Shown here piece by piece: positions 1,211-11,847 of a stretch of 28,630 bases of DNA. Below the pieces are notes generated by a model. That model was not told the origin of the DNA and searched no databases. It saw only the letters and a list, made by a program, of their open reading frames with translations. Source of the stretch: a virus; the UHGV virus genome UHGV-0195556, one strand, 5' to 3'. Position 1 is the first letter of the stretch; each line of letters opens with the position of its first letter. The translations under genes were made by a program, and so were the position numbers.

Positions 1211-1453
1211 GTGAAGGACATAGCCATGAGCTTATTGCCTCGGGAAAACGCACCCCAAAAAAGATATAGACTTCTGAGAATATCAGAAGTGATTAATTTG
1301 ACTGGCTTACCCAAGTCAACAATTTATCTAAAGATAAAGAATGATGAATTTCCGAACCAAGTTTCTATCGGTTCTCGTTCTGTTGCATGGGTGGAGCATG
1401 AAGTTAATGAATGGATAGAGAAGAATATTCTCAATAGAAAATTAAACTCCTAA
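1211..1453 (+). CDS. AlpA-family phage regulatory protein (small DNA-binding activator/excisionase-like)
   Basis: 80-aa ORF with MerR-like HTH typical of AlpA family; first gene inside the att boundary; AlpA is a marker of P4-like satellites. Confidence 0.7.
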   Translation: MKDIAMSLLPRENAPQKRYRLLRISEVINLTGLPKSTIYLKIKNDEFPNQVSIGSRSVAWVEHEVNEWIEKNILNRKLNS

Positions 1454-1470
1454 ATTGAGGTGGCAAATAT

Positions 1471-2331
1471 ATGGTTGACAATGTTTTTAAGAAGAAATTG
1501 GCATCAATTAAGAACGAACATGTGTCGGTGTTAGATAGTTACAAAGTAAGATCATTTAAAGAGACTCATAGCGACACGGCCTGTATTGTGCGTATTATTG
1601 AAATATATTCACTGAATAAGCTGCGAGCTAAAGGTGAAAAGCTGTATTCACTTACGGGGTTAACAGTACCTGATACGGAAACTGTGGCGAATGAGATCAA
1701 CCTGCTCCTGAGCCGTTATGCCCAGTTGTGTCGTCAGGAAGAGGAAGAGTTATCTTTCCGGCAGCGTGAAGTGACAAATGCGGAAGTTGCATGGAAAAGC
1801 ACATTCTCAAAAAACGGCGTCAGTAGCATTGCTGAAGCCAAAACGAATAAAATGGGGCATGCTGAACGAGCGGATGCTGAACGGTATTACCATCTGGCTG
1901 TTTCCCGGTTGAATGAACAACATAGTCGATTGAGCACGATCAAGCTTTTGCCGGGAGTACTGGCCGATGAAGGAAACTACATTGGGAAGGGAATCGATAA
2001 GCGTTTACTGAATATATTTCCTCAATCCGGCCAGATCCCTGCTGATTTTATTTCTGTATTTAATGACAGTGACGTTGTCCGTGATATTAAATTTATTACT
2101 GATGCACTCAAGTCTTTATCTGATTCCGTGAGTGAAATTATTAGTCGTTGTAGCGTTCCAACTGATCGTTATGTATTAAATAACGGTGGAATGGCAAGAG
2201 CTATGGCTTACAGGGAGTACTATCGAGCAGATAATTATGTATTACGTTCAGTCGTAAGTGACCGGGATTATGTTGAGCATGTAATGAAATACAATCTGGT
2301 TACTGAGTACAAAAATAAAATCTTTTCTTAA
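1471..2331 (+). CDS. hypothetical protein; candidate capsid-assembly factor by position (immediately upstream of capsid homologue)
   Basis: 286-aa ORF with RBS (GAGGTGG) 18 nt after the alpA stop; no family recognised by eye; does not match my recollection of P2 gpO or P4 Sid/Psu. Confidence 0.45.
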   Translation: MVDNVFKKKLASIKNEHVSVLDSYKVRSFKETHSDTACIVRIIEIYSLNKLRAKGEKLYSLTGLTVPDTETVANEINLLLSRYAQLCRQEEEELSFRQREVTNAEVAWKSTFSKNGVSSIAEAKTNKMGHAERADAERYYHLAVSRLNEQHSRLSTIKLLPGVLADEGNYIGKGIDKRLLNIFPQSGQIPADFISVFNDSDVVRDIKFITDALKSLSDSVSEIISRCSVPTDRYVLNNGGMARAMAYREYYRADNYVLRSVVSDRDYVEHVMKYNLVTEYKNKIFS

Positions 2332-2353
2332 ATACTTAAAAAGGTGAAAAACT

Positions 2354-3358
2354 ATGTATGCCTTCAAAACTGAAAGGCCGGACGCAGCACGTCGTTATCA
2401 TAATAAATTCGTCACTGGCACTAACTATCAGGAAGAATCAAACAGACGCTTTGCATTAAGCGAACCTACTGAAAATATACTGCGTACCTCAATTCTGGAA
2501 TCCGGGTGGCTTATTAAAAATATTACCCTACGTGATGTTAACGCCGTGTCAGGTAATGCCGTCAATATTGGTGCCAGTGAACTGTATACCGGACGTGTGG
2601 ATGGTGGCCGTTTCCACAAAAAAATGGCAATCAATGGTACGGAGTTCTTTCTGACAGAGACGGATACCTGCGCCCGGATCAGCTATTCCGATATGTCTCA
2701 TATTTACCATACCGGCGTGCCGGATGAGTTTGAGAAAACGGTTGAGAGCTTTTTTGCCCAGGCATATGCGCTGGACATGCTGCGGGTCGGTTTCAACGGT
2801 GTGTCGATTGCAAATACTACAAACCCGGAAATCAATAAAAAAGGCGAGGATGTCAATATTGGCTGGCATGCACTGGCGAAAGCCTACGGGAACGGAAAGC
2901 AAATCATCTCTGAGCCTGTCACTCTGGGAGAGACTGGCACCTGGAAAAATATTGATGCTCTGGCCAACCATCTGATTACAGAGCTTATTGCTGAGCAGTT
3001 TCGTGAAGATCCTCGTCTGGTTGTACTGGTTGGGGCAGAGCTGGCAGCACATCAACGCCTGAAGTTATTTAATGCCGCAGACCGCCCGTCTGATGTGAAT
3101 GCGGCACAGATGGCTACAAGTTCTGTTGCTGGCCGCTTTGCGTTTATTCCCCCGTTTATGCCGGGTAAGCGTCTGGCAGTAACGACGCTGGATAATCTGC
3201 ATATTTACACTCAGGCGATAACACGCTGGTTTCGTGCTGAGTTTGATGATGAAAGCAGTGAATACGTGCATTCCTACCTGCGCAATGAAGGTTATGCACT
3301 CGGTGAACCTGAACTGTACGCGGCTGTTGATGAGTGCACCCTGACGTTTGCGGATTGA
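2354..3358 (+). CDS. P2-family major capsid protein homologue (GpN-like)
   Basis: 334-aa ORF with RBS; colinear blocks match recalled P2 gpN (VGFNGV vs AGFNGV; DPRLVVLVGAEL vs DPDLVVIVGRQL; LDNLHIY vs LENLSIY; ESGWL vs ESSDFL). Confidence 0.65.
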   Translation: MYAFKTERPDAARRYHNKFVTGTNYQEESNRRFALSEPTENILRTSILESGWLIKNITLRDVNAVSGNAVNIGASELYTGRVDGGRFHKKMAINGTEFFLTETDTCARISYSDMSHIYHTGVPDEFEKTVESFFAQAYALDMLRVGFNGVSIANTTNPEINKKGEDVNIGWHALAKAYGNGKQIISEPVTLGETGTWKNIDALANHLITELIAEQFREDPRLVVLVGAELAAHQRLKLFNAADRPSDVNAAQMATSSVAGRFAFIPPFMPGKRLAVTTLDNLHIYTQAITRWFRAEFDDESSEYVHSYLRNEGYALGEPELYAAVDECTLTFAD

Positions 3359-3371
3359 CTTAGCGACAGAA

Positions 3372-3398
3372 AGACCCGCTCAGAGGCGGGTCTCGTTT
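3372..3398 (+). terminator. putative rho-independent terminator after capsid gene
   Basis: Inverted repeat AGACCCGC / GCGGGTCT with 6-nt loop followed by a short T-containing tract. Confidence 0.4.
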
Positions 3399-3496
3399 AC
3401 AGCATCAGGAAAAATGAAGAACTATTTTTAAGCAGAGGCTTAAGCATGCCAGCGTTAATTAATCCAGGCAATGATCAGTTTTCGGTTATAAATTTC

Positions 3497-3526
3497 TTGC
3501 CTCACCAGGAATGCGCGGGATATAGT
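3497..3526 (+). promoter_or_regulatory. putative sigma70 promoter driving the immunity/replication operon (P4 PLE analogue)
   Basis: TTGCCT then 18-bp spacer then TATAGT, located upstream of the seqA-like element. Confidence 0.3.
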
Positions 3527-3556
3527 TTAAAGGTTGCCGCAAAATCGGCAGCCGGG

Positions 3557-3581
3557 CGTAGGAACCCGTGTTATCTGAAGG
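3557..3581 (+). promoter_or_regulatory. seqA-like target site of the immunity RNA
   Basis: GCGTAGGAAC...TATCTGAAGG, repeated at 3781-3821 and complementary to 3735-3756. Confidence 0.5.
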
Positions 3582-3588
3582 CGATACT

Positions 3589-3611
3589 ACACGCGCTAGG
3601 CGTGTTTTTTT
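3589..3611 (+). terminator. rho-independent terminator directly downstream of the seqA-like site (immunity terminator candidate)
   Basis: Stem ACACGC/GCGTGT with 5-nt loop followed by TTTTTTTGTGT. Confidence 0.55.
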
Positions 3612-3696
3612 GTGTCGCAGCTTTGACTCACCTAAAATTTATGGTGTGGTGGCTGATTGTATTTTTTTATTTTTTACGCCACATCATCAGAATTAT

Positions 3697-3775
3697 GGTA
3701 GTCCAGGCGGGGCAGCTTTCGGGCTGGCCGGTATCCTTCAGAGCCGGTATTCCTACCCCCGTCTGGGCTACCACC
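3697..3775 (+). ncRNA. structured small RNA, P4 CI-RNA-like immunity factor candidate
   Basis: 16-bp closing stem GGTAGTCCAGGCGGGG / CCCCGTCTGGGCTACC (two G-U pairs) enclosing internal hairpins; interior segment CCTTCAGA..TTCCTAC is complementary to both flanking seqA/seqC-like repeats; no credible ORF. Confidence 0.5.
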
Positions 3776-3780
3776 CATGA

Positions 3781-3821
3781 GCGTAGGAACTCCGGTGGTA
3801 GCGTTACCCGCTATCTGAAGG
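3781..3821 (+). promoter_or_regulatory. seqC-like target site of the immunity RNA
   Basis: Second copy of GCGTAGGAAC...CTATCTGAAGG immediately upstream of the RBS of the next CDS. Confidence 0.5.
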
Positions 3822-3832
3822 AGGTTGCCATT

Positions 3833-4036
3833 ATGGCTACAGTCCCTGCTTTATCTCACCCTGAATTTACCTTTGTCTTTCTGGCTGTCCGCCGTACAGA
3901 CCGTGATGCCCGTCCACGCCCTGTGCGTGTAATCGCAGAATGCGAGCATGCTGCACGCCTTAAACTTGCCACTGAATTTATCCTGAGCTTTGCTGCCCGT
4001 ATCCCTGTGAAAAGAGCCGGGGAGGTGGTTGCATGA
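3833..4036 (+). CDS. hypothetical protein (first gene of the replication operon)
   Basis: ATG preceded by GAAGGAGG; stop overlaps the next start (ATGA); the 196-aa track ORF 3446-4036 is rejected upstream of this ATG. Confidence 0.5.
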   Translation: MATVPALSHPEFTFVFLAVRRTDRDARPRPVRVIAECEHAARLKLATEFILSFAARIPVKRAGEVVA

Positions 4037-4269
4037 AATCCATGAATTTTAAGCAAGGCTGCATATTGAGTGAACAGGGGGAGAGTCGTCTGTTACGGGC
4101 GGCACTGGCCAGTGAGTTTCTTGCAGAGGTCTTGTCCGTGCCCACAGTGAATGGAGCGAGAACTGTTTCAGCGGAAGGCGCTGCGGCTTTAGTGGCCTGT
4201 ATTGCCGAACAACTGGATGGCGTTGTTAAGGAAACCAGCACAATTAAGGGAGTGATGCGCGATGAATAA
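4033..4269 (+). CDS. hypothetical protein
   Basis: 78-aa ORF translationally coupled to neighbours on both sides. Confidence 0.5.
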   Translation: MKSMNFKQGCILSEQGESRLLRAALASEFLAEVLSVPTVNGARTVSAEGAAALVACIAEQLDGVVKETSTIKGVMRDE

Positions 4270-4672
4270 TAATCAAAATTTAAAGGCGCATGCTTTACGA
4301 ACAGCAGTCTTACGCTACTACATTGCTGATGCATTCATTTCCTTAATGGTGCGTGTTCATAATGAACCTGTTTATATTGAAGATGGCGAACGAATAGAAC
4401 TCTCCCACGAAAAAGTGGTGAGTAATATTATTTACCATATTGAAATGCCGTGGGTGAATGAGTTTGGGGCTGATGCTGGTTGCATACTGGCCGCAGAGAA
4501 ACTGGAAAAAATGCTTAAACCAGGCTTTATGTCAGAAAATATTCGCCTGTCAGTTTTTGGTGTCACAGAGATGCGTGAGGTTTACCGGGATATTATTTTC
4601 GGAGCACCTGATGGCGAACTACCCGAAGGTTTTGAATTTGTGAAGCCGGAAGGTCAGGAGGTGCTGCTGTGA
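4262..4672 (+). CDS. hypothetical protein
   Basis: 136-aa ORF; stop overlaps the GTG start of the primase gene. Confidence 0.5.
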   Translation: MNNNQNLKAHALRTAVLRYYIADAFISLMVRVHNEPVYIEDGERIELSHEKVVSNIIYHIEMPWVNEFGADAGCILAAEKLEKMLKPGFMSENIRLSVFGVTEMREVYRDIIFGAPDGELPEGFEFVKPEGQEVLL

Positions 4673-7356
4673 AAACACCGTCTGTATCCACGATTTCCGG
4701 AGCTGCAATTGGGCGCTGGCCTTATATCCTGTCAGCATTAGGTATTAAAGTACCGTCCGCAGGACATCATGGGGCTTGCCCTGCCTGTGGTGGAAAAGAT
4801 CGTTTTCGACTGGACGATAAAGCGGGGCGAGGGACGTGGTTTTGTAATCAGTGCGGTCATGGCGATGGTCTTGATCTGGTTCGTCTGGTGACAGGAAGAA
4901 AGATAAAAGAAGTCGCCGGGATGGTATCTGAGGCGCTTGCATTACCAGAAATACAGGAGAAGCCCGCATTGCCAGCCAGGAAAAAGGCCGCAGGAAAAGA
5001 AGCGGGCGCGGAGCGATATACCAGACTCAGACAGCAGTCCTGCAATGGTGAGCCGGTCTATCTGACAAATAAGAGCTTACACGGGTATTCACTTCCCTTG
5101 CTGTCACAGCCTTTGAATCTGGCCGGAATAACATTTTCCACCGGTTCATTACTGCTGCCTTTGACGGATATTTCCGGGAATATTACTGGTGGCCAGCTTA
5201 TCAATCCTGACGGGGATAAAAGTCTGCTGCCCGGTAGCCAGCTGTCTGGCGCATTCATTGCCCTGACCGATATACCCGCTGAAACACCTGAACAGGTGAT
5301 TATCACTGAGGGTTTTGCCACGGCGCTTACCGTCAGTCTGCTGACTGAAGGATGGATCGTGGCGGCTGTCGCTGCCACCAATTTACTGAAGGTGACGGAG
5401 CAGATCCGAAAACGCTGGCCGGAAACCCGGATCATTCTGGCCGGAGATAATGATCTGGCTGACGGCAAAGAAAACACCGGGCGTATTCAGGCAGAGAAAG
5501 CCGCCAAAGCGGTGGATGGCTGGGTAACGCTCCCTCCGGTACGCCATAAGGCTGACTGGGATGATTATCGGCAGGAAGTGGGGAAAGAACGGGCGAGAGA
5601 TGCCTTTCGTGAAGAAATGACGCTGCATGGCAAAGGGCAGACCCGTTTACCAGAAGGGTTCCGGCTGACAAAAGAATATTTGTGGTACGACAAGCTGGTT
5701 AATAAGTCTGATGGTGATACAGAGATACGTAATATCAAAATTTGCAGTCCGTTGCGGGTGACGGCAATCACCAGTGATGCTGATGGAAGTAATTACGGGC
5801 GTTTGCTGGAATGGGAAGATACCAACGGAAACAGCCGTAAATGGGCAATGCCGATGGAGATGCTGGGCGGTAGCGGGGAAGAACTGCGCCGCGTTCTGCT
5901 GGTTAACGGGCTTTCTTACATCAACATTAACGGCATGGCCAGAGCATTCCTGATGGAATATATCTCGCTGTGTAAACCGGACAGAAAAGTAACCTGTGTG
6001 AATAAAACTGGCTGGCACGGCGGGGTTTACGTTCTCCAGGATGAAGTGATAGGGCGCGAAGCCCAGTCAGTCATCTTACAAACATCGAGTGTGCAGGGGC
6101 GTGATTTTCGTGTCAGCGGCACATCAGAGGGCTGGCGTGAAAATATAGGCCGTTATTGCATAAAGAATGCCCGTCTTGCCTTTGCGGTGAGTCTGGCATT
6201 TGCTGCCCCCCTTCTGAAACTGGTTGGTATCGGCGGTGGAGGTTATCACCTCAAAGGGGAATCCACAGACGGTAAAACCACGACGATGAAAGTGGCTGCA
6301 TCAGTATGTGGTGGAACAGATTTCTGGCATACGTGGCGGGCGACGGGGAATGCCTTAGAAGGAACGGCGAGCCGCCGCAATGATGCCACGCTGATGCTGG
6401 ATGAAATCCGGGAGGTTGACGGCAGGGAGGCGGGAAATATCGCTTATATGCTGGCTAACGGGCAGGGCAAAGCCAGAGCCAGAACAGATGGTTCGGTAAG
6501 GGAAACCAACCGCTGGAATCTGTTGTTTCTGTCTACCGGGGAACTGTCACTGGTAGAGCATGCGGCAAGCGCCGGGGAACGTACGTATGCCGGGGTTGAG
6601 GTCAGAATGATCCAGATCCCAAGCGATTCGGGCAAGTATGGCGTGTTTGAAGAACTTCATGGCTTCAGTAGCGGGAAAACCCTGGCTGAGCATCTTGAGC
6701 AGCACGTAGCGCATTATCATGGTGCACCATTCCGCGACTGGCTGTATTGCCTGACCGCTGATCTGCCGGAACTGACCAGTCAGGCGAAAGCCTTATTGAA
6801 AGAGTATACCCGAAGGCTGACGCCGGAAAATGCCGGGAATCAGGTTGGCCGGGCTGTTACCCGTTTTGCTCTGGTTGCGATGGCCGGGGAGCTGGCCACA
6901 AAAGCGGGCATCACAGGATGGCCGGAGGGAGAGGCCTTTCGTGCCGCTCAAAGCTGTCTGGCTGCATGGATGGCTGACCGGGGCCATACAGCTAATCAGG
7001 AAGATAAAGCGGCACTTGAACAGGTTCGGGACTTCATGACGCGTAATCAGTTCAGTCGGTTTGCTGACTGGAATGACGACAGGAACCGGCCTGTTTCAAT
7101 GATGGGATTCAGAAAAGTCGATAAAGGAGACAACGTGACAGAGCCGGTTGTGACGTTCTACGTTCTCCCGTCAGGCTGGAAGGAGATCTGTAAGGGATTT
7201 GACTCGCGTAAGGTGGCCAGGTTGTGTGTGGACGCGGGCTGGCTGAAACCCGGTGAAGATGGCCGGACGCAAAACAGCATTCGCCTGCCAGAAATAGGGC
7301 TTAAACGTGTGTACCAGTTCAATACACAGGTACTGGGAAGCGCTGAACCTGAGTGA
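4669..7356 (+). CDS. P4 alpha-like bifunctional DNA primase/helicase (zinc ribbon + TOPRIM + P-loop NTPase)
   Basis: 895-aa ORF with GTG start after AGGAGG; N-terminal CPACGG...CNQCGH zinc-binding motif; TOPRIM-like ITEGFATAL..AGDND; Walker A GESTDGKTT. Confidence 0.8.
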   Translation: MKTPSVSTISGAAIGRWPYILSALGIKVPSAGHHGACPACGGKDRFRLDDKAGRGTWFCNQCGHGDGLDLVRLVTGRKIKEVAGMVSEALALPEIQEKPALPARKKAAGKEAGAERYTRLRQQSCNGEPVYLTNKSLHGYSLPLLSQPLNLAGITFSTGSLLLPLTDISGNITGGQLINPDGDKSLLPGSQLSGAFIALTDIPAETPEQVIITEGFATALTVSLLTEGWIVAAVAATNLLKVTEQIRKRWPETRIILAGDNDLADGKENTGRIQAEKAAKAVDGWVTLPPVRHKADWDDYRQEVGKERARDAFREEMTLHGKGQTRLPEGFRLTKEYLWYDKLVNKSDGDTEIRNIKICSPLRVTAITSDADGSNYGRLLEWEDTNGNSRKWAMPMEMLGGSGEELRRVLLVNGLSYININGMARAFLMEYISLCKPDRKVTCVNKTGWHGGVYVLQDEVIGREAQSVILQTSSVQGRDFRVSGTSEGWRENIGRYCIKNARLAFAVSLAFAAPLLKLVGIGGGGYHLKGESTDGKTTTMKVAASVCGGTDFWHTWRATGNALEGTASRRNDATLMLDEIREVDGREAGNIAYMLANGQGKARARTDGSVRETNRWNLLFLSTGELSLVEHAASAGERTYAGVEVRMIQIPSDSGKYGVFEELHGFSSGKTLAEHLEQHVAHYHGAPFRDWLYCLTADLPELTSQAKALLKEYTRRLTPENAGNQVGRAVTRFALVAMAGELATKAGITGWPEGEAFRAAQSCLAAWMADRGHTANQEDKAALEQVRDFMTRNQFSRFADWNDDRNRPVSMMGFRKVDKGDNVTEPVVTFYVLPSGWKEICKGFDSRKVARLCVDAGWLKPGEDGRTQNSIRLPEIGLKRVYQFNTQVLGSAEPE

Positions 7357-7380: not shown

Positions 7381-7570
7381 GAGGTAACACTGGTAACAGA
7401 GGTAACACCCGTTACTGATGCGGTTCTTCAGTGTTACCAGTCAAAAATACTGACTGGTAACAGAGGTAACAAAAAATGGTGTGTTACCACGCGTTACCTC
7501 TTGATTTTGCTAACTGGTAACAGATTAAATCCTTTTAAATCAATAGCGTTACACGTGTTACCAGTGTTAC
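7381..7570. repeat. iteron array, candidate satellite replication origin
   Basis: At least 9 copies of GGTAACA / TGTTACC in both orientations within about 190 bp immediately downstream of the primase gene; resembles P4 type-I iterons (TGTTCACC) as recalled. Confidence 0.6.
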
Positions 7571-7638
7571 ACGTTCAGAACAAGAGGTAGGGATCCAAAT
7601 CCCTTCTTCTGGCGGGCAACAGTATAGGGCACAGAACG

Positions 7639-8590: not shown

Positions 8591-9472
8591 ATGAGTCATA
8601 ATAAAAAGGAATATGCTAAATTTTTCCGTCGCCCCATTTTTTCATCCTTAGCAAAAGGTAAGGATATTTCGGATTTATTTGGGAGTTTTGATTCTTACTG
8701 CTATGAAACACTGTTTTCAAACAATGATAATAATGAACATGAGATTTCACTAAGGGATTTATTTACATCATTATATGATTTTTTGCGTCTGAATTATAGA
8801 AATGAATATGTTTATAAGACAGCACTTGTCAATAAAATAATATTCGGTAAGCACAGCCCAAAAACAAGTTCGTCGTCCATAGAGTTACCAATTAAAAACT
8901 CTATAGTGGATGTTGCGGTGTTTAATGGTACGTCTACAGCTTACGAGATTAAGACAGAGTATGATTCACCAAAAAGGTTGATTACTCAAGCCCCTGATTA
9001 TTTGGATGTTTTTGATAAAGTGTATATAGTTACACATCCAGAGTATGCAAGTAAATATTGTGCTTTAAATCTCCCCAGAGTGGGAGTTATGGTTTTGAAT
9101 AAAAAAGATCAATTGAGTGTCATTAAGGAGGCAGATTCAAATATTGATTATATTAAAAGTGACAGCTTGTTTTCAGTTCTTAGAAAGGAAGAGTTCTTAG
9201 CTATAATAGAAGATTACACTTCAACTAAAATAAATATGCCTAACGGATTGGTTTATGAATATTGTAAAGAGATATTCATGCAGATGCCATTAAACATAGC
9301 AAATAAATACTTTATCTCTGCTATGAAAAAAAGATGTAACGATAAAGTTTTTTTGGATTATATTTATTCTCTTCCAGCATGTTTACGTGTTTTAGGTTAT
9401 GCAACACCATTATCAAGAAAGCAAAAAGAATTCATCATGAATTTGATGGATGTAAAAATTAAAATTTGTTGA
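8591..9472 (+). CDS. hypothetical protein with PD-(D/E)xK-like nuclease motif; cargo gene A
   Basis: 293-aa ORF in strongly AT-rich DNA; motif SIELP...IVDVAVF...AYEIKTE fits an E...D...ExK restriction-endonuclease-like signature. Confidence 0.55.
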   Translation: MSHNKKEYAKFFRRPIFSSLAKGKDISDLFGSFDSYCYETLFSNNDNNEHEISLRDLFTSLYDFLRLNYRNEYVYKTALVNKIIFGKHSPKTSSSSIELPIKNSIVDVAVFNGTSTAYEIKTEYDSPKRLITQAPDYLDVFDKVYIVTHPEYASKYCALNLPRVGVMVLNKKDQLSVIKEADSNIDYIKSDSLFSVLRKEEFLAIIEDYTSTKINMPNGLVYEYCKEIFMQMPLNIANKYFISAMKKRCNDKVFLDYIYSLPACLRVLGYATPLSRKQKEFIMNLMDVKIKIC

Positions 9473-9493
9473 TATCCTCAGGAGTTGTAAGTT

Positions 9494-10444
9494 ATGTATA
9501 GCCCATATTTGTATGCGAGAAGTACAGAGTTATTATGCCTTAGGGACCTCGTTGCGAAGGGAGTTAGCCTAAATGGTCTGCTACCAATTTTAGAACCAAT
9601 TAACGTCAATACGAGAAATTTATTAACATGTTTAAATGTTTGGAATTCTGACATAATTGTTATCCTTAATCCTTATCAGGAAGATTTTTCTTCACACAAT
9701 AACGTCTTAACTTTAAATCAAAATTTATCAAGTGTATTAACAAATAAAAATAATATCATCTCTGGATATCTTATTCAGCCCAATACAACGATTAATGATA
9801 TTAATAATTGGTTGAATGCTAACTTAAATAGACGAGTTGCACTTCTATATGATAATCCATCATTATCCAACTCTGATATTCAGTTGTTGGCGACAAATCA
9901 ATTGATTAGTTATCATGTTGTTTTAAATAATAAAATGCTTCCTAATCAGTGCGCTCTTCTTCCTTTGTCGAAGTTAATTATTATTAGCGATAACTTTAGA
10001 AAGTTAGCAAAAAATGCTGATTATAATGGGCCGGAACTTTTCACGCACGCACATCAATTCGTGGGACAAAATTACTTAGGATTTGGCGATTATACAATTA
10101 CTGGCCAGGTACTAGATCTTGGAGGTGGTCAACCTTCTGCTGTTGCCGCACATTTGGTGTTCAAGAATTTACAAGCGAATACAGTTTGGATTCGTCATTT
10201 TGTATCAAGCAACACGCAACGAGGAAGTTCAAATGTTACTGCAAAATTTTTAGATGTTTCAGATCAAATTACAAATCTTGTTCCCCAACATCCAACCCAG
10301 TTTGGCAGCAACATTGGTCTTAACTATTATTATTACAATAGTCAACCAACTGTAAGGCATTTCCCTGGGTTGCCAAAAAACAAACAGTATCAAATTACTC
10401 ACCATATTTGTTTCATGCTGGATTTAATAGCAGGTCGTATTTAA
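9494..10444 (+). CDS. hypothetical protein; cargo gene B
   Basis: 316-aa ORF with AGGAG RBS 21 nt after gene A, same AT-rich composition; contains GFGDY and LDLGGGQPSAVAAH motifs; 3' end overlaps the convergent integrase by 21 bp. Confidence 0.55.
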   Translation: MYSPYLYARSTELLCLRDLVAKGVSLNGLLPILEPINVNTRNLLTCLNVWNSDIIVILNPYQEDFSSHNNVLTLNQNLSSVLTNKNNIISGYLIQPNTTINDINNWLNANLNRRVALLYDNPSLSNSDIQLLATNQLISYHVVLNNKMLPNQCALLPLSKLIIISDNFRKLAKNADYNGPELFTHAHQFVGQNYLGFGDYTITGQVLDLGGGQPSAVAAHLVFKNLQANTVWIRHFVSSNTQRGSSNVTAKFLDVSDQITNLVPQHPTQFGSNIGLNYYYYNSQPTVRHFPGLPKNKQYQITHHICFMLDLIAGRI

Positions 10445-11599
10445 TAAGCTAGCGTACCATTCCATCATTACTTGTCGATCTTTAATATATTGCGCATGAT
10501 TGTAAGTACCTCGAATAGAGTTCTTATCAACATGCGCAAGCTGCATTTCAATCCAGGCACTTTCAAACCCATGCTCATGCAAGATGGTGCTCATGGTATG
10601 CCTGAAACCGTGACCCGTTAACCGACCGTGATAACCCAGTAGTTTTATCACTTTGTTGATGCTGGCTTCGCTCATTGGTTTACTGACGTCATTCCGGCCA
10701 GGGAAAACGAGGCTGTAATTCCCTGTTATTTCTTGCAGCTTTTTCAGGATATTGATCGCCTGAGTTGATAACGGAACCAGATGGGGGCGGCGTTTCTTCA
10801 TCCGTTCTTTGGGGATCTCCCATAAGGCATTATCTAAATCAAACTCAGCCCATTCCGCTGCACGTAGTTCAATTGTTCGCACGCCTGTTAGCATCAACAG
10901 CTGCGTGGCGTATTTGGTAACTAAACTGCCCTGATAGTTATCCAGAGCATTAACGAACTCGGGCAACTCGCTTTCAGTCAGGAACGGGAAGTGTTGGGTT
11001 TTAGGTTTGTTGAGTGCGATAGCTAAATCGGGTGCAAAATTATACTTTGCTCTACCAGTGGCAACAGCATAACGAAGCACTTCACCACAGCGGCGGCGGA
11101 TCTTACTGGTTTGCTCTAGCGCACCTCTTTTCTCTATTTTTTGCAGGACGGTTAGCAGTTCTAATGGTTCAATCTGCTCAATTGGGCGCTGGCCGATAAA
11201 AGGAAAAATATCCTTTTCCATACAATTGAGAACCTCTTTTGCATAACCCTCTGACCAGGTGGCTTTTTTCGATGAGTGCCATTCTCTGGCCACAGACTCA
11301 AAGCTGTTCTCATGCGCGAACTGCAAAGCAATCTTATCTGCTTTTCTGGCTTCACTTGGGTTTATCCCGTTGGCTAACATCGAACGCGCTTCATCACGTT
11401 TGGTACGTGCCTGTGCCAACGACACATCGCCATATACGCCAAAGGAAATCATCTTAGGCTTACCTGCAAAGCGATAGCGAAAACGCCAGCCTTTACTGCC
11501 CGCTGTGTCGATCAGGAGTGATAGCCCCATACCATCGTTAAGCGTATAGGGTTTGTCCTTCGGTTTTGCTCTTTTTATTTGGATGTCAGATAGCAGCAT
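10424..11599 (-). CDS. tyrosine recombinase, P4-type integrase
   Basis: N-terminal AKPKDKPYTLNDGMGLSL...WRFRY and C-terminal HGFRHT...Y motifs typical of P4-family integrases; start taken at MLLSD (the upstream in-frame ATG at 11647 is less likely). Confidence 0.85.
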   Translation of the reverse strand: MLLSDIQIKRAKPKDKPYTLNDGMGLSLLIDTAGSKGWRFRYRFAGKPKMISFGVYGDVSLAQARTKRDEARSMLANGINPSEARKADKIALQFAHENSFESVAREWHSSKKATWSEGYAKEVLNCMEKDIFPFIGQRPIEQIEPLELLTVLQKIEKRGALEQTSKIRRRCGEVLRYAVATGRAKYNFAPDLAIALNKPKTQHFPFLTESELPEFVNALDNYQGSLVTKYATQLLMLTGVRTIELRAAEWAEFDLDNALWEIPKERMKKRRPHLVPLSTQAINILKKLQEITGNYSLVFPGRNDVSKPMSEASINKVIKLLGYHGRLTGHGFRHTMSTILHEHGFESAWIEMQLAHVDKNSIRGTYNHAQYIKDRQVMMEWYASLLNTTCY

Positions 11600-11758: not shown

Positions 11759-11774
11759 ATGGTGTCCCCTGCAG
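11759..11774. repeat. att core copy 2 (ATGGTGTCCCCTGCAG), junction between satellite and lambdoid prophage
   Basis: Exact copy of 795-810; about 75 bp from the torI stop. Confidence 0.7.
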
Positions 11775-11847
11775 ACATCTACTTGAAGCGGCAGGGGATT
11801 GATTAGAATGGTATTTTTTAGATGTGAGAAATATTTTACCCGCTATT

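Follow-up and report, generated by a model that had tools for sequence, protein, structure and literature searches.

Positions 3497–3835 of the DNA analysed here carry the parts of an immunity switch: a promoter, a seqA module, an intrinsic terminator, a structured RNA and a seqC target. It is very probable, at roughly 85%, that this switch works like the immunity region of phage P4. In that reading the RNA would act on seqA to terminate transcription and on seqC to block kil, and translation of an Eta-like protein would override the switch. The P4 immunity mechanism was worked out in the 1990s. A P4 layout had already been proposed for this region from the letters alone (referred to below as the sequence-only reading). 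All elements of that layout were found and have homologues in P4, whose cI region gave the best match to the window among phages (71% identity over 396 nt). The window denotes the whole 28,630-nt stretch of DNA; all parts of the switch lie on its + strand.

The satellite prophage and its replication operon

A 901-nt query comprising positions 3400–4300 is 100% identical to the chromosome of E. coli SK1144 (NZ_AP018784.2), and 421 E. coli records match this segment with at least 99% identity. Gene content across the full span of the window was taken from the annotation of NZ_AP018784.2. The satellite prophage is approximately 10.5 kb long and is bounded by dsdC and a tRNA-Arg gene (11760–11834). 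It comprises a vis/AlpA-like HTH gene, a 286-aa ORF, a P2-family major capsid gene and the immunity region, together with a 67-aa Kil/Icd-like ORF, two small ORFs and an 895-aa primase-helicase (Zn-ribbon, Toprim, DUF927). A 90-aa Ogr/Delta zinc-finger gene, a sce7726/sce7725 pair and a tyrosine integrase adjoining the tRNA gene complete the element.

The operon downstream of the switch (4033–7356, + strand) consists of a 78-aa ORF, a 136-aa ORF and the alpha-like primase-helicase of 895 aa. The last of these (4669–7356) contains the Pfam domains Zn_Ribbon_Prim, Toprim_3 and DUF927, in agreement with the RefSeq annotation. The operon predicted to be under control encodes the alpha-type primase-helicase of a satellite, as is characteristic of P4-type immunity.

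A census of P4-like satellites defines them by int, psu, delta, sid, alpA, epsilon and alpha (PMC10085698). Present here are the integrase, alpha, the vis/AlpA-like HTH protein and the Ogr/Delta zinc-finger protein (90 aa). A tblastn search of the window gave no match for Sid, Delta or Epsilon of P4, psu is absent from the RefSeq annotation, and the sid-delta-psu capsid-hijacking operon of the census definition is missing from the element. Copies of the Ogr/Delta-type motif TGT-N12-ACA show no enrichment within the window (four found, seven expected). The element at the tRNA-Arg gene is a P4-type satellite prophage.

For the comparative analysis, 58 related loci from Enterobacterales were collected with the primase as bait. 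A covariance model located the structured RNA in 42 copies, each directly upstream of the primase and on the same strand. These copies represent 25 distinct box combinations, built from 22 b' loops and 13 a' boxes.

The leader module, the antisense RNA and their pairings

A PLE-like σ70 promoter (3497–3526, + strand) consists of TTGCCT, an 18-nt spacer and TATAGT, with a predicted start near 3533. In the alignment of relatives the −35 TTGC and the −10 TATA(G/A/T)T are conserved, and the distance from the −10 element to box a1 is exactly 37 nt in 24/24 loci. Apart from this promoter-like site, only one terminator-like site was found among the + strand signals at 3300–4300. The predicted promoter falls within an ORF spanning 3446–4036 and lies upstream of seqA, which on sequence is the arrangement of P4.

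The first part of the predicted transcript is a seqA/IsrK-like leader module (3533–3611) built up from two hairpins, box b1 and a t1-like terminator. Hairpin 1 (3533–3552) shows compensatory changes in 7/7 pairs. Hairpin 2 (3553–3568) is 100% paired and presents box a1 (GTAGGAA, 3558–3564) in an 8-nt loop. It is followed by box b1 (TCTGAAGG, 3574–3581) and by the t1-like intrinsic terminator (3589–3611), which is composed of a stem (3589–3605) and a run of seven T residues extending to 3611. The Rfam model isrK (RF01394) matches positions 3533–3610 with 68.9 bits (cutoff 50) over model positions 1–77, the terminator included. The model c4-a1b1 (RF03163) gave a full-length match at 3520–3572 in a sensitive scan (E = 1e-9) with 43.8 bits, which is under the cutoff of 46.7; P4's own c4-a1b1 element scores 44.1 bits and likewise stays below it. 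The upstream repeat and its terminator are the seqA/IsrK-like module that has already been described (PMC3632133).

Both the site and the T-run of a terminator that had been called strong in the sequence-only reading are borne out, but the adjective is generous for a 6-bp stem of about −7 kcal/mol. The stem is 90.8% paired across the relatives, with some covariation, and a hairpin with a T-run is found in 19/25 alleles. This first terminator is not universal, since the T-run is missing from one clade (6/25 alleles). In the same clade a 22-codon ORF replaces kil. We also considered an antiterminator formed by CGUGU (3567–3571) and ACACG (3589–3593), which would make termination dependent on the occupancy of b1. 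This pairing is not conserved in P4 and was dropped.

The CI/C4-type antisense RNA covers positions 3691–3778 (+ strand), with a mature form of 3697–3775 predicted by homology to the CI RNA of P4. The Rfam model C4 (RF01695) matches the full segment with 81.1 bits (cutoff 45). The covariance-model search suggested as a check on the sequence-only reading came out in its favour. The 16-bp closed stem proposed there for 3697–3775 was also recovered. The basal stem pairs residues 3696–3712 with residues 3757–3773, giving 17 bp, of which 16 fall within the mature RNA as predicted. The fold energy of 3691–3778 is −47.8 kcal/mol (z = −5.3), and 0/200 shuffled sequences were as good; for the reverse strand z is −1.8. 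Above the basal stem are hairpin 1 (3713–3726) and hairpin 2 (3727–3748), the latter with box b' (CCTTCAGA, 3735–3742) in its loop. Box a' (TTCCTAC, 3750–3756) is located in the joining strand. The end of the RNA resembles a tRNA acceptor, with a G-C closing pair and an ACC tail. CI and C4 RNAs are substrates of RNase P (PMC5499578).

Across 24 distinct sequences the RNA fold is 100% paired (648/648 cells), with compensatory changes in 15 of the 27 pairs and only 29–48% pairing in slid controls; the underlying alignment was fitted to the covariance model and is biased towards the structure.

Two sequences flank the RNA as repeats, essentially where they had been noted before: GCGTAGGAAC at 3556–3565 and 3781–3790, and TATCTGAAGG at 3572–3581 and 3812–3821. 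The earlier claim that the interior segment 3735–3756 is complementary to both repeats is likewise correct, as CCTTCAGA ... TTCCTAC in the RNA is the exact reverse complement of both boxes in both of them. The seqB boxes are exact complements of 7 and 8–9 nt at seqA as well as at seqC, as expected for a P4-type switch. The seqC target (3783–3824, + strand) is composed of box a2 (GTAGGAA, 3783–3789) and box b2 (TCTGAAGGA, 3814–3822), which overlaps the Shine-Dalgarno sequence GGAGG (3820–3824).

In the 28.6-kb window TCTGAAGG occurs three times (0.78 copies expected), and all three copies belong to the switch (3574 on the + strand, 3735 on the − strand and 3814 on the + strand). GTAGGAA has four copies in the window, three of them at the switch. 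The intermolecular pairings were scored on an independent MAFFT alignment that extends from the promoter to the start codon in 24 loci. Pairing between a1 and a' is 100% conserved, with changes on both sides in 6/7 pairs; the corresponding values are 94.8% and 7/8 for b1 and b', 100% and 6/7 for a2 and a', and 98.6% and 7/9 for b2 and b'. Slid controls for these four pairings reached 32–45%. On these occurrence statistics and the covariation, an origin of the boxes as chance repeats was rejected. In a detection-neutral comparison, the longest complement between b' and b2 had a mean length of 8.7 nt within a locus versus 4.4 nt between foreign loci.

Together, these alignments argue strongly that selection acts on the pairing between the RNA and its two flanking sites, and that the boxes serve as a code for specificity. 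The covariation is equally compatible with pairing in trans and in cis. The box sequences define the predicted immunity specificity of the satellite, and the 22 b' and 13 a' variants might be used to type satellites and to predict their mutual exclusion.

Nested reading frames and the predicted course of the switch

The sequence-only reading had placed the second repeat on the ribosome-binding site of the first gene of the replication operon. Its position on a ribosome-binding site stands; the gene concerned is a Kil/Icd-like ORF of 67 aa (3833–4036, + strand), which is predicted to come first in translation on transcripts of the internal promoter. NCBIfam model NF033153 matches residues 12–59 of this ORF with 68.1 bits. 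In PHROGs the Kil family carries the label "transcriptional repressor". The ATG at 3833 follows the Shine-Dalgarno sequence (3820–3824) at a distance of 8 nt, and in the related loci box b2 always abuts GGAG, 7–9 nt before the ATG. A length of 63–68 aa is kept in 19/24 loci. The ORF aligns with a 65-codon ORF of P4 that is named kil in the P4 work, and its first ~155 nt align with timm, the Rho-dependent terminator of P4. This terminator was assigned to X51522 8365–8209 (PMC3177188), and its start coincides exactly with the ATG that aligns to position 3833 of the window. The stretch 3840–3917, within this candidate equivalent of timm, is C-rich and G-poor (C/G = 2.0).

A b2 box that overlaps the Shine-Dalgarno sequence, an Icd-like domain in the first gene and an Rfam family named after the C4 RNA of P1/P7 would also suit a switch of the immI type, i.e. 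a purely translational repression of an icd-like gene coupled to an effector, with none of the termination logic of P4. We regard such a switch as very unlikely. The region is collinear with P4 at 71% identity and not with P1, a conserved intrinsic terminator follows seqA, and the start of kil aligns with the Rho-dependent timm of P4 in a C-rich, G-poor context. Moreover, an ant-type antirepressor is lacking: two small ORFs and the primase-helicase lie downstream, and searches of Pfam, NCBIfam and PHROGs detected no Ant domain in the 78-aa ORF, the 136-aa ORF or the primase.

The Kil/Icd-like ORF is nested in a longer, eta-like ORF (3446–4036, + strand, 196 codons), annotated in RefSeq as "Icd-like protein". 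The eta-like ORF starts upstream of the internal promoter, spans all RNA elements and has its frame and stop codon in common with the Kil-like ORF. The sequence-only reading had seen no credible ORF here. This was wrong: the 196-codon frame runs through the region with 0 stops, is annotated in RefSeq and is conserved in relatives. The other two frames contain 10 and 7 stops across the region. Of 24 related loci, 22 have a long ORF that runs across the RNA region, 13 of them in the kil frame and nine in the +1 frame, depending on a 1-nt difference in the distance between b2 and the ATG. The spacer between b1 and the RNA is poorly conserved and has nine different lengths (65–149 nt), yet 23/24 loci share the same phase modulo 3. 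In nine loci the long ORF begins 75 nt before the −10 element and thus upstream of the internal promoter.

This arrangement has a counterpart in P4, where a constitutive promoter lies inside eta and its transcript is terminated via interactions between the CI and seqA RNAs and processed into CI RNA (PMC10111431). P4 Kil is a truncated Eta that is translated upon read-through, and full-length Eta is translated only from the upstream late promoter, its translation blocking termination (PMC10111431). As in P4, kil of the window lies nested within the eta-like ORF and has its translation start overlapped by seqC.

We considered the 196-aa CDS as an over-extended artefact, its Icd-like domain being confined to the last 67 aa. 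This view was dropped because of the long ORF in 22/24 loci, the spacer phase kept in 23/24 loci and the precedent of P4 eta (PMC10111431). The RefSeq CDS is not simply wrong, yet as judged by its sequence the "Icd-like" homology is limited to the final 67 aa. The opposite extreme would be a locus that simply codes for a 196-aa Icd-like protein, with the RNA-like features being incidental. In its favour, RefSeq annotates nothing but a CDS, and the open frame has been kept in relatives. However, the Icd-like domain occupies only the last 67 aa, two Rfam families score above their cutoffs, the ORF has a conserved promoter within it, and 27 pairs inside the RNA and 31 intermolecular ones are maintained by compensatory changes. 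Coding and RNA functions also coexist in P4 (PMC10111431). A coding function as the sole explanation is refuted by the covariation data, and we give it practically no chance. The main use of the analysis is in annotation: RefSeq shows one CDS at a locus that is predicted to contain an internal promoter and a nested eta/kil pair and to give rise to two small RNAs.

Based on the parts described above and on the experiments with P4 and IsrK, we propose the following course of events for the P4-type switch. The constitutive promoter (3497–3526) inside the eta-like ORF would fire near 3533, so that the seqA module is made first. Many transcripts would end at 3589–3611 and yield an IsrK-like RNA of ~79 nt. 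Transcripts that read through would be processed by RNase P and 3' trimming to a stable CI/C4 RNA of ~79 nt (3697–3775), which would display b' in a hairpin loop and a' as a single strand. Binding of this RNA to a1 and b1 on the nascent leader is expected to promote termination at the first terminator and thereby to autoregulate the level of the RNA. By binding to a2 and b2 it would mask the ribosome-binding site of kil. In the absence of kil translation, Rho would stop transcription within or before kil at the equivalent of timm, so that the primase-helicase operon stays silent and the prophage would be immune to satellites with the same boxes. Once the upstream late promoter is turned on, the transcript would include the eta start (3446), and translation across the switch would prevent termination. 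In this scheme, RNA processing and termination are carried over from those experiments, as are the part played by Rho and the bypass.

An additional structure was observed downstream of the RNA. The a2 hairpin (3767–3802, + strand) has an outer stem formed by GCTACCACC (3767–3775) and GGTGGTAGC (3794–3802), an inner stem formed by GAG (3779–3781) and CTC (3790–3792), and an 8-nt loop, CGTAGGAA, that contains a2. The nine pairs of the outer stem are 98.6% paired across the relatives, six of them with compensatory changes, and the three pairs of the inner stem are 100% paired. On its own the hairpin has an energy of −19.4 kcal/mol, and it is present in the predicted minimum free energy (MFE) structure of the full leader. 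GCTACCACC is at the same time the 3' arm and tail of the CI/C4-type RNA, and the a2 hairpin and the basal stem of the RNA are mutually exclusive. At basal-stem positions that tolerate G-U pairs, the partner in the a2 hairpin changes and a Watson-Crick pair is kept. To our knowledge, this hairpin is no part of the classical P4 model. Briani et al. (2000, Mol Microbiol 36:1124) reportedly described the t1 terminator and an atypical terminator t4 of P4; the a2 hairpin might be related to the latter.

For the unprocessed leader, the predicted MFE structure has seqA and seqB paired in cis, with −125.4 kcal/mol versus −111.2 kcal/mol for the local fold. Carrying the a2 hairpin, this cis-paired leader resembles "structure A" of IsrK from Gifsy-1 (PMC4825925). 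It bears on a possible activation layer of the IsrK type, which would be added to the P4 model and not replace it: the terminated RNA (3533–3611), which carries a1 and b1, would act mainly in trans as an anti-antisense RNA; it would titrate the CI RNA or open the inactive, cis-paired conformer of the read-through transcript and so turn on kil and the operon. The match to the isrK model above its cutoff and the energy of the cis-paired leader point in this direction, as do two published observations. In Gifsy-1, translation of the long transcript is activated when the short IsrK binds to it (PMC4825925), and IsrK-like sequences of P4-like prophages were required in a TraDIS experiment with S. 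Typhi (PMC3632133). On the other hand, the downstream genes differ and include no anrP antirepressor, and for P4 the role ascribed to seqA is that of a termination-promoting target (PMC10111431). The conformer prediction is, furthermore, purely thermodynamic, and co-transcriptional folding should favour the local fold. We consider such a layer conceivable but rather doubtful.

A still more elaborate scheme would be a three-state RNA device, in which the leader is either cis-paired or releases CI, the 79-nt seqA RNA acts in trans as an anti-antisense RNA, and Eta provides the override. In such a device, which appears unlikely to us, the a2 hairpin carried by the cis-paired conformer could be a control element that has so far gone unnoticed in P4-type switches, and perhaps the physical basis of t4 in P4.

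Relation to known immunity systems

The RNA modules of the window have relatives in several phages. C4/IsrK-like regions of the linear plasmid prophages PY54, phiKO2 and Klebsiella phage 48ST307 are 80–83% identical in the two RNA modules; the matches are confined to these modules (21–22% of the query), and the gene context is unrelated.

In the Salmonella prophage Gifsy-1, IsrK/STnc1160 (RF01394) corresponds end to end to the leader module found here, including the terminator. Further downstream, the read-through transcript of Gifsy-1 contains a processed, stable RNA (PMC4825925), and the predicted layout in the window is alike. The Gifsy-1 locus, however, controls orf45-anrP and antQ with the short RNA as an activator, whereas kil and replication genes follow here. 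According to Pfam, RefSeq and PHROGs, neither orf45-anrP nor antQ is among the downstream genes.

With the C4 RNA of P1/P7 (immI: c4-icd-ant, RF01695) the switch shares the RNA fold, the a' and b' boxes, and a1/b1 and a2/b2 on one transcript. As in P1/P7, b2 is located at the ribosome-binding site of an Icd-like gene, and the RNA is predicted to be a substrate of the hairpin type recognized by RNase P (PMC5499578). P1/P7 differ in that an antirepressor lies downstream and in that the prophage is a plasmid of the P1 type, whereas the switch described here belongs to a satellite prophage without an antirepressor.

The closest system is the immunity region of P4 (PLE-seqA-t1-cI-seqC-kil/eta-timm), to which the order, spacing and orientation of the parts correspond at 71–76% identity. 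Matches to C4, isrK and c4-a1b1 occur in the P4 immunity region in the same order as in the window, those to C4 and isrK also with the same spacing. A Kil homolog, a nested eta-like ORF and an alpha-type primase operon are found in both. The terminator and the RNA stand 27 nt closer together here than in P4, and the eta-like ORF follows the capsid gene, whereas eta of P4 adjoins the vis/alpA gene. The sid and psu genes of P4 are not part of the satellite described here, as judged by tblastn for Sid and by the RefSeq annotation for psu.

In the pairwise alignment of the window with P4 the scaffold is nearly identical, and the boxes differ in a compensatory manner at all three sites. The a boxes read GTAGGAA here and GTGAGAA in P4, and box a' reads TTCCTAC and TTCTCAC, respectively. 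In the same way, the b boxes are TCTGAAGG here and TTCACAGG in P4, and box b' is CCTTCAGA here and CCTGTGAA in P4. Predicted duplex energies are −9 to −14 kcal/mol with the satellite's own boxes versus −2 to −6 kcal/mol with those of P4. Because the boxes differ and the cross-duplexes are weak, the satellite is predicted to be heteroimmune with P4.

In P4-like satellites, IsrK has been equated with seqA and C4 with the CI RNA (PMC3632133), and seqA of P4-like phages has been named a structural homolog of IsrK (PMC4825925). The mechanism, the RNA families and the architecture are thus already known, and existing Rfam models detect both RNAs; what sets this switch apart from that of P4 is only its box allele.

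The switch region and its variants in related loci

The protein encoded immediately downstream of the C4-type RNA, the 67-residue Kil/Icd-like protein (window 3833–4036), was assigned to the PHROGs families phrog_1743 and phrog_6928, both labelled 'transcriptional repressor'. This label is probably a leftover of the old 'cI protein' annotation of P4, which is still carried by NC_001609. The actual repressor is the RNA and not the Kil/Icd-like protein. The spacer between the first terminator and the RNA contains a block, TTATGGTGTGGTG (window 3639–3651), which is shared with P4 and resembles the 5' arm of the C4-type RNA; elsewhere the spacer is variable.

A clade of related loci from Pectobacterium, Serratia and Morganella (L045, L046, L051, L052 and L060) retains the RNA together with both of its targets. 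The T-run 3' of the upstream target is missing in these loci, and a 22-codon ORF replaces the Kil ORF of 63–68 residues. These differences point to a form of the switch that lacks both Kil and the first terminator.

Two C4-type RNAs are present in some related loci. In L060 (Morganella morganii H1r) they are located at 4053–4140 and 4621–4708, 568 nt apart, and differ in their b' loops (the boxes pairing with the b targets), each having matching targets of its own. The locus L015 carries copies at 4012–4099 and 11149–11236, the second of which is divergent, 7 kb away and flanked by no clear targets.

A capsid module upstream of the switch

Directly 5' of the RNA switch and on the same strand lies a module (window 1226–3358) composed of a vis/AlpA-like HTH gene, a gene for a 286-residue protein and a full-length major capsid gene of the P2 family (Pfam, 9.5e-67). 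The 286-residue protein has no match in Pfam, PHROGs or NCBIfam. The capsid protein shares only ~25% identity with P2 gpN, and the best phage match of the gene is at 48%. A GC-rich hairpin, GACCCGC...GCGGGTC (window 3374–3393), follows the capsid stop codon just 5' of the start codon of the eta-like ORF.

The motif TGT-N12-ACA, the late-promoter dyad of the Ogr/Delta type, occurs four times in the window (seven expected). Because it is not enriched overall, only the positions of two of the four motifs are suggestive: 1153–1170, 56–73 nt 5' of the HTH-capsid operon start, and 7565–7582, 57–74 nt 5' of the ogr/delta gene.

Comparison with P4-like satellites

A gene pair of the sce7726/sce7725 families (window 8591–10444), with the Ogr/Delta gene on one side and the integrase on the other, occupies the slot where P4-like satellites have their defence hotspot. 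In PADLOC, the sce7726 protein matches the model PDLC02989 ('cll', 1.2e-18), and the search with the sce7725 protein yielded no match.

P4 sid, delta and epsilon have no match in the satellite, and psu is absent from its annotated genes. The capsid module is found at the equivalent position in 27 related loci from many Enterobacterales genera (e.g. L003, L005–L022, L026, L028, L030 and L032), whereas P4-type sid/delta occurs in only four. These satellites look like a widespread P4-type sub-family that itself encodes a capsid protein. Because psu-delta-sid is required for a P4-like satellite under the census definition, this capsid-encoding sub-family would probably be missed by it.
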